From Neophaeotheca triangularis (Eukaryota): a stretch of 64,000 nt of DNA. The notes under the pieces were generated by a model. It did no database searches, was not told the DNA's origin, and saw only the letters and a list, made by a program, of their open reading frames with translations. Shown piece after piece: positions 53,916 through 55,913 of the stretch. The stretch is from assembly GCA_054600435.1 (NCBI GenBank), contig BAAIJX010000030.1, positions 186,001 through 250,000 of the forward strand, in the 5' to 3' direction. The position numbers and the translations under genes were made by a program. The stretch's first letter is position 1; each line of letters starts with the position of its first letter.

Positions 53916-55913
53916 TCACGCCGCAGCAGCCGGCGCCTTGGTCTGGAAACCTTCAAAGTCATTATTGAGAGCCTCCCTAGTCTCCTTCTCATACAACGGG
54001 ATTCCTCCAGCGTAATTCAGAGCCTCCTTTGGCTTGCCGGGGATGTTGGCTATACGAAAAACCCCAAGTTAGCAACGAGCACGCTACACCACACCTCGTC
54101 TATCACACGGCTACTCACCTCCCATGTACCACGACGAGACATTATGGAACAGCGTCTTCTTGCTCAGCGCCGCGACATTCTCCCTCCAGGCCTCCTCGCC
54201 CGCTTTCGTGGCGTTCAAGTAGGTGATGTTCTCCTTGCGCGCCTTGGCGAGGGCATCGACGATCCAGTCGCCCTGGCACTCGACACACGACGGGCCGTTG
54301 GAGAAGGCCGTGGGCCCTTGTGCGCCGTAGAGGAAGAACATGTTGGGCATGTCGGCGCAAGTCATGCCGAGGTAGGACCAGGTGCCCGTCGCCCACTTGT
54401 CTTTCAAGTCGACGCCGTTGATGTCCTTGAGACCCATGGACTTCATGCCGCCGTTGACCGAGTCGAAGCCCGTCGCGAGCGCGATCATGTCGAATTCCCG
54501 GACTTGCCCGTCGGCCGTCTTGATGCCCTTCTCCGTGACCTCGACGATGTTGTTCTGGTTGAGGTCGATCACGTCGTTTTCAGGTCGATCGAGCATTTCG
54601 TAAAAGTCCTGCTCGAGAGAAGGCCGCTTCGTGCCCCATGGGTGCGGCGCCTTGGTGGGAGCGAGAATGTCCCTCTTGCGCGGGTCCGTGATGCGTGCAC
54701 GCGTCTTCTCCAGCCAGAAGTTGTAGGCCTCGTCGTTTGCTTTTTCGTCAAAGAGCATGTCCTTGTAAGTTGCCAGCCAGAATTTGAAACCACCTTCTTC
54801 CCATAGGCCCTCGAAGAACTTTCTTCGCTCCTCCGGAGTATCGTCAAAGGTATTTCGGTCGACAAAGTCATAGCCGAAACCGGCAAAGGTCGTCATGCGG
54901 TATTTGTAGAGCTCGGGGTAGTTTGGCTTTTCCCTGTCTTGCTCTTCTTTCGTGAGCTTTCTCTGTCTCATCGCTACGAAGCTGTTAGCGCTTGCTTCAA
55001 AGACGGAAGAACCGTGGAATGCATACGAAGGCAAAGGTTTGGTGTCCTCTGGAAAACGGTCACGTTGGAAGCATCCTTGGCCGTCTCTTGAGCGATCTGT
55101 ATGCCCGTGGACCCAGTGCCGATGACAGCGACCTTTTTCCCCTTGGTATCCACCCCGCTTTCCGGCCAGAACGACGAGTGGTACATTTCACCCTTGAAGC
55201 TCTCGAGGCCCTTCCAATCGGGAAAGTACCTCTTGGCCGCGAACCCAATAGCGTTGATGAGAAAGTTGCATGTGGCCGTTCTGCCATCTTCAGTCTTGAC
55301 GACCCATTTTTGCTTACTCTGATCAAAGTCTGCACTCACGACGCGGCTGTCAAAGGCCGTGTCCTTCTTGACGTTGAGTTTCGATTCGACGTAATCGAAA
55401 TATTGCTGCGAAAGCGGTCAATATCAACAACAGCAATATCCATCGGCAATATACGGGTCTGCATACGCGAAGCTCTTGCCATCCAGGGTACTTCTCCGAC
55501 CAGGTCCAGTCCTAGGAAAGCAGTCAACATCAACAACAGCGATTCGCCGACGACGTGCGCGTCCGCATGCATACCTTCCAAATCTTTTCAATGCTGTACT
55601 CGTAGATCGGCACCTGCGTATCCACTCTAGCCCCAGGGTAGCAGTTCCAATGCCTAGCGACAGATCATTAGGCTTCCAAGTCCGATCAACCACTCTTTCT
55701 CCAGACTTGAACATACCAGATTCCTCCTAGTTCTTTGCCGGCCTCGAAGATCTTGCATTTGAAACCGAGCTCGTCGCGCAGCTTGTGCATCAAGTAAACG
55801 CCTCCAAAGCCCGCCCCAACAATCAACACTTCTGTGTCCAAGTTGTCGACATAGGTATCGTTGTCGCTGGGCAGCTTCTGACCAGCGGTCGATATGTCTT
55901 TCCTAAGAACCAT
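53916..55913 (-). CDS. Type I Baeyer-Villiger monooxygenase (cyclopentanone/cyclohexanone monooxygenase-like), 6 exons
   Basis: [27 protein letters not shown] fingerprint [44 protein letters not shown]. Five GT-AG introns give one continuous frame. Confidence 0.95.
55406..55574 (-). repeat. Pair of mutually homologous spliceosomal introns (55512-55574 and 55406-55466) flanking a 45-nt exon
   Basis: Hand alignment gives 44 of 59 identical columns, and 25 of the last 30 nt are identical. Confidence 0.85.

Follow-up and report, generated by a model that had tools for sequence, protein, structure and literature searches.

Intron 3 as a probable diverged copy of intron 2 in a Baeyer-Villiger monooxygenase gene of Neophaeotheca triangularis

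The origin of new spliceosomal introns is still debated, and few gains have been documented for which a source can be named. Same-gene intron duplications were reportedly described in fungi by van der Burgt and colleagues in 2012, and Tarrio, Rodriguez-Trelles and Ayala, in a 1998 paper in PNAS, are said to have traced a new intron of Drosophila Xdh to an older one that was duplicated within that gene. Intron pairs within genes are also recorded for Oikopleura dioica (Denoeud et al. 2010, on the summary given in PMC4122922). In Dothideomycetes, the sections of PMC3609843 and PMC4457414 that deal with introner-like elements (ILEs) describe spliceosomal introns that have canonical signals and multiply, as exact units, into new positions—with tens to hundreds of members spread over unrelated genes, about twice the length of ordinary introns and stably folded—and that decay into ordinary-looking introns. 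Same-gene intron duplicates (SGDs), as characterized in PMC3609843, are ordinary in length and predicted stability, and in one subclass the flanking exons are not duplicated with them. Table 2 of that survey places 0, 0, 1, 0 and 0 of them at single-gain positions in five species; in ILE-rich Dothideomycetes they explain, on that table, almost none of the single gains, and the prior for same-gene duplication is therefore low.

The pair of introns considered here belongs to the black yeast Neophaeotheca triangularis (Dothideomycetes). It lies in 64 kb of DNA—the whole stretch that was analysed, hereafter the window—within a gene for a type I, cyclopentanone-monooxygenase-like Baeyer-Villiger monooxygenase (BVMO; 53918..55913, minus strand). 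The gene has six exons and five introns, with its stop codon near 53918-53920, and its 562-aa product is identical to a database protein, P0001, which NCBI names as a hypothetical protein of N. triangularis and for which the precomputed Pfam families are FMO-like and pyridine-nucleotide-oxidoreductase. Our own spliced aligner found the same five introns again, all on the minus strand: intron 1 (55654..55716; 63 nt, phase 2, inside W66), intron 2 (i2; 55512..55574; 63 nt, phase 0, between K92 and D93), intron 3 (i3; 55406..55466; 61 nt, phase 0, between R107 and Q108), intron 4 (54974..55026; 53 nt, phase 1) and intron 5 (54050..54118; 69 nt, phase 1). Both i2 and i3 begin with GT and end with AG, and between them lies exon 3 (55467..55511; 45 nt, 15 codons), the peptide of which is kept in all homologues and is part of the conserved enzyme. 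The first-pass annotation of the window had given i2 and i3 these coordinates, on the minus strand, in phase 0 and 45 nt apart, and the gene model agrees with all of these.

Both introns are removed exactly in environmental RNA, the check on their junctions that the annotation had proposed. A 353-nt RNA contig from metatranscriptome run X3 lacks precisely 55406-55466 and the 63 nt of i2, with zero mismatches, and exon 3 is present between the two joints; the i2 joint corresponds to 55512-55574 when the tool's cut +1 placement is allowed for. The repeat stops at the intron ends. The exon sequence that adjoins i2 is AAG on one side and GAC on the other, that adjoining i3 is CGC and CAA, and the exon flanks are not repeated. 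A search for a second copy of exon 3-like sequence found none, which rules out tandem duplication of intron plus exon, and the orthologues are continuous across the i3 site; the annotation's statement that the flanking exons were not duplicated thus holds. No direct repeat of the kind left by target-site duplication abuts both ends of i2 or of i3, and an inverted-repeat scan revealed no arms at their ends. The exon end GCTTCGC does resemble the end of i3, GCTTTCGC(AG), but we treat this as chance rather than as a target-site duplication: the second copy of the GCTTCGC-like stretch is not directly next to the downstream exon, and two changes to the i2-like end account for it. Rfam returned 0 matches at E<=1 on either strand of 55300-55750, and so no structured RNA of the snoRNA type.

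When i2 and i3 are aligned, 44 of 59 columns are identical, with indels of 4 nt and 2 nt, and 13 of the 15 mismatches are transitions, the other two transversions; the alignment first reported is reproduced exactly. The transition excess has P=3e-5 under random mismatches, and 0.011 even if transitions are given a 55% share. Such an excess is what diverged homologues, unlike a chance alignment, should show. RIP was weighed as its cause, and requires much longer repeats. The likeness is best in an ungapped block toward the 3' end, identical at 25 of 28 positions, that spans the branch-site region with TTGAC and the pyrimidine tract (55410..55437 in i3, 55516-55543 in i2, minus strand; spacing 106 nt). 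A 25-nt degenerate pattern of this block, with up to three mismatches allowed, occurs at two places in the 64 kb—i2 and i3—where 0 are expected, and when all five introns were compared with the window by blastn-short, i2 and i3 matched only each other (E=1.7e-4; the next best match had an E of at least 0.64).

Other pairs of introns do not come close. The local score for the cores of i2 and i3 is 22, whereas 2096 non-orthologous intron pairs from relatives average 6.3 (sd 1.4) and reach 14 at most. Within-gene pairs of relatives reach at most 11 (n=79). Introns 1, 4 and 5 score 5-10 against i2 and i3; introns 1 and 5 are unrelated to them in sequence, intron 4 shares with i2 only the donor GTATGCAT, and the annotation was right to set all three apart. 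The splicing signals of the pair are themselves unusual by comparison with relatives. Both introns have the donor GTATGCA, and GTATGC begins none of 73 introns of relatives (0/73); both use TTGAC as branch site, and TTGAC without a CTRAY motif occurs in only two of the 73, which makes it as atypical as had been claimed. GTATGC occurs 26 times on the two strands of the window, against about 31 expected, and none of the eight intron-like stretches there that start with it resembles i2 or i3.

The likeness is unevenly spread. For the 3' half, the score was reached by 0 of 20000 shuffles. For the 5' half, the identity score is equaled or exceeded in 2870 of 20000 shuffles and is not significant; with the bases recoded as purine or pyrimidine, 699 of 50000 shuffles attain the score (p about 0.014), and the best among 73 real introns does as well. 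In an ungapped 23-nt alignment of the 5' half there are 10 mismatches, nine of them transitions, compared with five mismatches in 30 columns of the 3' part (Fisher p=0.063). The K2P distance between the introns is about 0.34 overall; transitions come close to saturation in the 5' half, and many of them fall at CpGs of i2. Homology from end to end is likely on this evidence, but is firm only for the 3' ~30 nt together with the shared unusual donor and branch site; a full-length copy is likely rather than proven because the 5' half is weak by identity and modest after recoding. What the annotation called an end-to-end alignment is thus strongly significant over the 3' ~28 nt, but suggestive only over the 5' half. 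In a second strain, X2, i2 and i3 are both present, and i3 differs at two of the 28 positions of the block.

Intron positions were mapped in 80 homologous metagenome loci, each count being limited to the loci that cover the position; the clade labels were taken from a rapid gene tree that included named proteins, not from the records. At position 92.0, that of i2, 23 of 51 covering loci with at least 60% identity carry an intron (20 of 39 distinct sequences). These belong to Cladosporium-like, Elsinoe-like and Pleosporales-like clades, the first of which groups as sister to the protein of the window (SH-aLRT 99). At position 107.0, that of i3, none of the 78 covering loci has an intron: in relatives the coding DNA is unbroken between R107 and the residue that follows, and the orthologues have no counterpart to any of the 61 nt of i3. 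One position is therefore old and the other lineage-specific, as local copying predicts and as the annotation had proposed to check. The gain can be dated no more closely than to the long branch leading to Neophaeotheca, the relatives sampled being from outside its genus and order. The 92.0 introns of the 23 loci are unlike i2 in sequence, the best of them scoring 9. No conserved element therefore accounts for the likeness of i2 to i3, and we reject the idea that the i2 position harbors a functional element under conservation.

The gene has a high turnover of introns: three of its five positions (65.2, 107.0 and 233.1) occur in none of the 74-80 covering loci. Positions 65.2 (intron 1, 0/74) and 233.1 (intron 4, 0/80) are, within the sample, unique to the N. 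triangularis lineage; in a paralogue of 49% identity the coding sequence is interrupted by an intron at 234.2. Intron 5 has no exact positional match in 74 covering loci, and the introns at 517.1 or 517.2 in three of them (L025, L046 and L050) may or may not share its position.

How else might two such introns have come about? Chance, or convergence on splicing signals, has a negligible probability in our view. Donor, branch site and acceptor are constrained, to be sure, and intron 4 too begins with GTATGCAT, but the shared block reaches well past any splicing consensus, the transition excess would have to be coincidental as well, and the pattern count, the core scores of other pairs and the shuffles of the 3' half effectively refute the idea. 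It is rather improbable that only a 3' module of some 30 nt—branch site, pyrimidine tract and acceptor—is homologous, i3 being otherwise sourced and its 3' part made like that of i2 by partial copying, as filler at a repaired break or by a later short conversion tract. The strongly significant likeness is indeed confined to the 3' ~28-30 nt, by identity the 5' half falls short, and since the i3 of strain X2 differs at two of the 28 sites the block does not seem to be under strong selection, which hints at a more recent shared ancestry of the 3' halves. Set against this are the preponderance of transitions in the 5' half and its recoded score, the rare donor common to both introns, their collinearity and nearly equal length, and the fact that the whole of i3, rather than part of it, is extra in comparison with orthologues; conversion between unrelated 60-nt sequences, moreover, would have had no homology to start from. 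Very improbable, too, is that both positions are ancient, i3 having been lost in all other sampled lineages while concerted evolution, by repeated gene conversion, maintained the likeness of the pair. Fungi do often lose introns precisely, and 92.0 itself is missing from two loci inside the Cladosporium-like clade (L056 and L062) and from an Aureobasidium-like clade. With 107.0 empty in all 78 loci that cover it, however, independent losses would be needed in the sister clade, in Teratosphaeriaceae/Hortaea-like, Elsinoe-like and Pleosporales-like clades, and in others; the within-gene pairs of relatives show nothing alike, and we know of no mechanism that holds two 60-nt introns at 75% identity over such a span. 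One gain is preferred to several losses, by parsimony and by the sequence likeness.

Unlikely as well is membership of a dispersed family—a degenerate ILE or 'low-copy intron'—with other members in unrelated genes, and with either two insertions in this gene or i2 as founder. The host is a Dothideomycete, a member of the class in which ILEs were discovered and cause most recent gains, and intron turnover in the gene is high. Several ILE insertions per gene and parallel gains near old positions are reported in PMC4457414, and degenerate ILEs that become indistinguishable from ordinary introns in PMC3609843. The members of such a family, however, occupy newly gained positions, which is true of i3 but not of i2, situated exactly where 23 loci across the class have an intron. 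Nor does either fold stably: the MFEs of i2 and i3, -13.7 and -7.9 kcal/mol, are weaker than the means of 200 shuffles (z +1.49 and +1.16). At 63 and 61 nt they are not about twice the regular length, the median for relatives being 57 nt (IQR 53-64, 81 introns) and the other introns of the BVMO gene measuring 53-69 nt. No further copy turned up in the window, whether by blastn-short, among the GTATGC stretches or by self-BLAST, which gave only nine internal repeats; 64 kb of a ~33-Mb genome would miss families below several hundred members, and this is therefore weak evidence against one. Contigs of genome run X1 (56312 records), searched with 55027-55913 at 80% likeness, returned the source contig only, but the match of i2 to i3 also went unreported there, leaving sensitivity to short matches unproven; run X20, with the same organism label, does not cover the locus and is uninformative. 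The annotation's second suggestion, an ageing introner family, thus gains no support from length, fold or copy number, the last as counted in the 64-kb window.

The explanation we favor, and which is probably correct, is that i3 is a diverged copy of i2, produced by same-gene intron duplication without exon duplication and not by an ILE burst. This is the local copying that the annotation had put forward, and it is supported by the position map, the RNA junctions, and a likeness beyond that of other intron pairs. The position of i2 would date at least to the common ancestor of the sampled Dothideomycete clades; then, in the N. triangularis lineage, a copy of i2 that ran precisely from its GT to its AG would have been inserted 45 nt farther downstream, between codons R107 and Q108, with orientation and phase (0) unchanged. 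That i2 is the source and i3 the copy, rather than the other way around, is suggested by the age of the two positions. The copy would have carried its own donor, branch site and acceptor and, therefore, could have been spliced at once, leaving the conserved protein unchanged. The event appears to be old, to judge from the K2P distance, the near-saturation of the 5' half and the presence of both copies in the second strain.

The exact intron-to-intron boundaries point to RNA-mediated transposition within the same transcript as the most likely route, and it is from these that we infer reverse splicing rather than a copy made at the DNA level. The excised intron would be reverse-spliced into a nearby site in a transcript of the same gene, the intron-bearing RNA reverse-transcribed, and the cDNA recombined with the gene. 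Some features speak against a simple version of this. The insertion site, CGC followed by CAA, is not a classical AG/G proto-splice site, and cDNA from a transcript without i2 would tend to erase i2 upon recombination; for both introns to be kept, either the recipient RNA must be unspliced or the conversion tract must end inside the 45-nt exon.

A bolder idea, in which we place little confidence, is that i2, an ordinary ancestral intron found across the class, became mobile, and that i3 was its first local hop, with further diverged copies in other genes. If so, a regular spliceosomal intron would have been caught in the act of founding an introner-like family, whereas ILEs are usually proposed to go the other way and decay into regular introns. 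In a narrower form, if true, excised introns would tend to go back into the transcript they came from at sites only tens of bases away, and i2 and i3 would provide a natural donor/copy pair, in a culturable fungus, for tests of spliceosomal retrohoming.

The pair reveals no new mechanism. It fits a known but rare class, same-gene intron duplication without exon duplication, and both partners are visible: an old, shared donor and, 45 nt away, a copy at a position that is empty in the relatives examined. In the fungal survey same-gene duplicates are hardly ever at demonstrable gain positions, and i2 and i3 are therefore among the clearer natural examples of intragenic transposition. The two are also still recognizable as same-gene copies well below the 'near-identical' level of earlier screens, and the frequency of such copies may therefore be underestimated.

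Transposon-type introners, known from algae and dinoflagellates, are marked by target-site duplications. They resemble i3 in that a ready-made, spliceable unit is inserted; unlike them, i2 and i3 display neither target-site duplication nor terminal inverted repeats, nor dispersed copies in the window. Introns that arise by tandem or segmental duplication likewise have a local origin in the same gene, but exon sequence is duplicated in the process, and i2 and i3 have no exon duplicate. With the ILEs of Dothideomycetes the pair shares the class of the host, canonical splicing signals, exact intron boundaries, arrival at a new position and an ordinary appearance with age (to go by the relevant sections of PMC3609843 and PMC4457414), but it differs in comprising just two copies, in one gene of the 64-kb window, of 61 and 63 nt, one of them at an old position. 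In Drosophila Xdh and Oikopleura dioica, too, lineage-specific introns are reported whose nearest relative lies within the same gene, and reverse splicing was suggested as the route, although these are animals, not fungi. Closest are the fungal SGDs without exon duplication. Here, too, neither length nor predicted stability sets the two introns apart from ordinary ones (as PMC3609843 has it for SGDs), exon sequence is not duplicated, and the likeness extends well beyond the splicing signals; within the 64 kb searched, introns alike in this way were found in the one gene. The published pairs are near-identical by BLASTN, whereas i2 and i3 are old and more diverged, at 75% identity; and in this case, unlike those, the donor can be named, by its class-wide position, and the copy occupies a demonstrated position of gain.

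The Baeyer-Villiger monooxygenase gene occupies 53918–55913 of the window on the minus strand and, in the model built from the sequence, comprises 6 exons and 5 GT..AG introns (i1–i5) and encodes 562 aa. Its product, assigned by Pfam to FMO-like and flavin/NAD(P)-binding families, is identical to a database protein (P0001) listed by NCBI as a 'hypothetical protein' from Neophaeotheca triangularis and is ~70–78% identical to proteins of other Dothideomycetes annotated as cyclopentanone monooxygenase. N. triangularis, placed in the Dothideomycete order Neophaeothecales, is a black fungus of yeast-like form. 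The introns, all on the minus strand, are i1 (55716–55654, 63 nt, phase 2), i2 (55574–55512, 63 nt, phase 0, K92|D93), i3 (55466–55406, 61 nt, phase 0, R107|Q108), i4 (55026–54974, 53 nt, phase 1) and i5 (54118–54050, 69 nt, phase 1); i2 and i3 are separated by the 45-nt exon 3. Intron positions are given below as residue number and phase, so that i2 lies at 92.0 and i3 at 107.0. Purine-rich (GGAGA/GAGAGG)n tracts occur on the plus strand at 27431–27576, 55954–56017 and 56503–56552; the last two, CT-rich when read on the gene's strand, lie upstream of the monooxygenase start.

The proposal that i2 and i3 are copies of one another came from a first-pass annotation, whose alignment we reproduced exactly: 44 identities in 59 aligned columns, 13 transitions among the 15 mismatches, and indels of 4 nt and 2 nt. 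The best block is ungapped, 25/28 identical, with a spacing of 106 nt, and a degenerate 25-mer made from it finds only i2 and i3 in the 64-kb window when up to 3 mismatches are allowed (2 sites; shuffles expect 0). When the five introns were compared with the window by blastn-short, i2 with i3 was the sole match (E=1.7e-4; all else E≥0.64). As a null we took the introns of homologous genes in related fungi and scored their cores locally with the splice sites stripped. Pairs at non-orthologous positions (2096) score 6.3 on average (sd 1.4, maximum 14), and 79 within-gene pairs reach at most 11; i2 against i3 scores 22. Introns i1, i4 and i5, which the annotation had thought unrelated, score 5–10 against the pair.

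The likeness is concentrated in the 3' half, whose score is reached in 0/20000 shuffles; by identity the 5' half is not significant (2870/20000). In an ungapped 23-nt alignment of this 5' half, 13 columns are identical, 9 differ by a transition and 1 by a transversion; when the half is recoded as purine/pyrimidine, its score is reached by 699/50000 shuffles and tied by the best of 73 real introns. Over the whole alignment the transition excess has P=3e-5 for random mismatches and P=0.011 if a 55% transition share is assumed. Both introns begin GTATGCA (GTATGC starts 0/73 introns of relatives), and both have a TTGAC branch site, found without CTRAY in 2/73. Because donor and branch site are shared, and the two are collinear and nearly equal in length, i3 is likely, as judged from sequence, to be a full-length copy of i2, with copying firmly established over the 3' ~30 nt only. 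The donor of i4, GTATGCAT, is the same as that of i2, the two introns being otherwise unlike, and two more intron-like stretches with a GTATGC donor, unrelated to i2/i3, lie on the minus strand at 61687–61781 and 11601–11658; this donor may be a habit of N. triangularis.

Repeats of other kinds occur in the window. The stretches 49717–50222 and 50720–50974 contain a 239-nt unit in repeated form (82% identity, period 267 nt) and, close by, further repeats of 30-nt period and 72-nt spacing, and the whole is probably a repetitive coding region. Self-BLAST of the window also pairs 1650–1680 with 14537–14567, two 31-nt stretches that are 90% identical and lie 12.9 kb from each other (E=0.002).

To date the two positions, metagenome contigs were scanned with an alignment of 25 orthologues, yielding 80 loci, and these were analyzed with a purpose-written protein-to-DNA spliced aligner, which finds all of i1–i5 in the window gene; the i2/i3 region was cross-checked by direct exon-peptide mapping. 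Of the 76 loci that span position 92.0, 51 show an identity of 60% or more, and in 23 of those 51 an intron separates the K codon precisely from the D codon; counted as distinct sequences, this is 20 of 39. In a quick maximum-likelihood tree of loci and named proteins (101 rows), the sister of the window protein is a clade of Cladosporium fusiforme and nine loci (SH-aLRT 99), seven of which have the intron; in the other two, L056 and L062, its absence is a clean, precise loss of an old intron retained by their clade mates. The other loci with 92.0 cluster with Elsinoe, Alternaria, Parastagonospora, Periconia, Glonium and Aulographum, a spread that makes the position older than the split of the sampled Dothideomycete subclasses. 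The orthologous introns are unrelated to i2 in sequence (best score 9), which rules out a conserved element at the site.

At 107.0, by contrast, there is no intron in any of 78 covering loci, and codons run uninterrupted across the site in relatives, e.g. GAGCTGCGC|AGCTACTTC. The nearest call, 109.0 in a 48%-identical homologue (L069), lies right where a truncated match begins; this homologue belongs to a bacterial-type clade otherwise without introns, and the call looks like an alignment artefact. In the published species phylogeny, where Myriangiales form the outgroup, Neophaeotheca is among the first lineages to branch off within Capnodiales sensu lato (PMC7426231); lineages on both sides therefore lack 107.0. 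Mapping thus upholds local copying, one of two readings offered at first pass: i3 appears to be a lineage-specific gain whose only detectable relative is the old adjoining intron, i2. Another lineage-specific intron sits beside the same old intron in a Mycosphaerellales-like locus (L050, 939–1222), which has 59 nt at 92.0 and 195 nt at 101.0, 27 nt downstream; these two are not similar, the highest score among all within-gene pairs being 11. Intron turnover in the window gene is high. Neither 65.2 (i1, 55654–55716) nor 233.1 (i4, 54974–55026) is occupied in the 74 and 80 loci, respectively, that cover them, and the gene lacks 293.0, 447.1 and 528.2, marks of the Cladosporium-like sister clade.

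Both introns are removed as predicted. Public searching matched one run whose contigs cover the whole stretch and from which this DNA may stem (X1), a second strain under the same organism label (X2) and marine metatranscriptome runs. An RNA contig of 353 nt from one of the latter (X3), placed on 55027–55913, matches exons 4, 3 and 2 with 0 mismatches and skips exactly 55406–55466 (i3) and the 63-nt i2, bearing out the splicing that the annotation had wished to see confirmed. Since this spliced contig is 100% identical to the gene (window 55141–55617), the gene is expressed in a natural sample. The X2 strain has both introns, with 3 differences in i3 and 1 in i2. Over 55551–55761 it yields two contigs, each with roughly half the depth seen alongside (69.6 and 60.5 versus 96–111), which are told apart by their SNPs and, at 55695, by an indel of 1 nt. 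They look like a pair of haplotypes, whether because the strain is a heterozygous diploid or because its culture was mixed.

The copying event is old. The K2P distance is ~0.34 over the whole alignment and, by hand calculation, roughly 0.9 for the 5' half alone. At nine of the 13 transition sites i2 has G/C and i3 has A/T, and i2 has 56% GC and 8 CpG to the 46% and 4 of i3. Either the copy could have lost CpGs by decay or the source could have become richer in GC, a direction that only an outgroup copy would polarize.

How might the copy have arisen? It starts and stops exactly where the intron itself does, and the flanking exon bases are unlike (AAG|GAC at i2, CGC|CAA at i3), with neither repeated exon nor target-site duplication at the pair, just as the first reading of unduplicated exons had it. 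Duplication at the DNA level would rarely meet both intron boundaries, whereas a copy made from excised intron RNA would do so by construction. For this reason we favor RNA-mediated transposition within the same transcript: reverse splicing, then reverse transcription, then recombination. Two points are awkward for such a route: the target lacks the AG|G of a proto-splice site, and i2 would be kept only if the recipient RNA was unspliced or the conversion tract short. The other first-pass reading, an ageing introner family, widens to any dispersed low-copy or decayed family that includes i2 and i3. Introner-like elements (ILEs) are frequent in Dothideomycetes, genes with several ILE insertions are described (PMC4457414), and the window gene has three positions unseen elsewhere; that one of two copies should lie exactly at a class-wide position argues the other way, and we consider a family improbable. 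No further copy occurs within the 64-kb window, where copy number was checked.

Collemare et al. 2013 describe three groups of duplicated fungal introns: same-gene duplications, low-copy introns and ILEs (PMC3609843). The pair differs from ILEs in length (63/61 nt; relatives' median 57, IQR 53–64), in fold, being less well folded than its own shuffles (z +1.49, +1.16), and, for i2, in gain position. It matches, as that survey describes them, the same-gene duplications, which comprise 82 members across 24 species, up to 16 per species, half of the cases accompanied by duplicated exons (PMC3609843). Events of this kind are thus known but rare, and this one is unusually well resolved, with donor and copy identified, gain position demonstrated and splicing verified.
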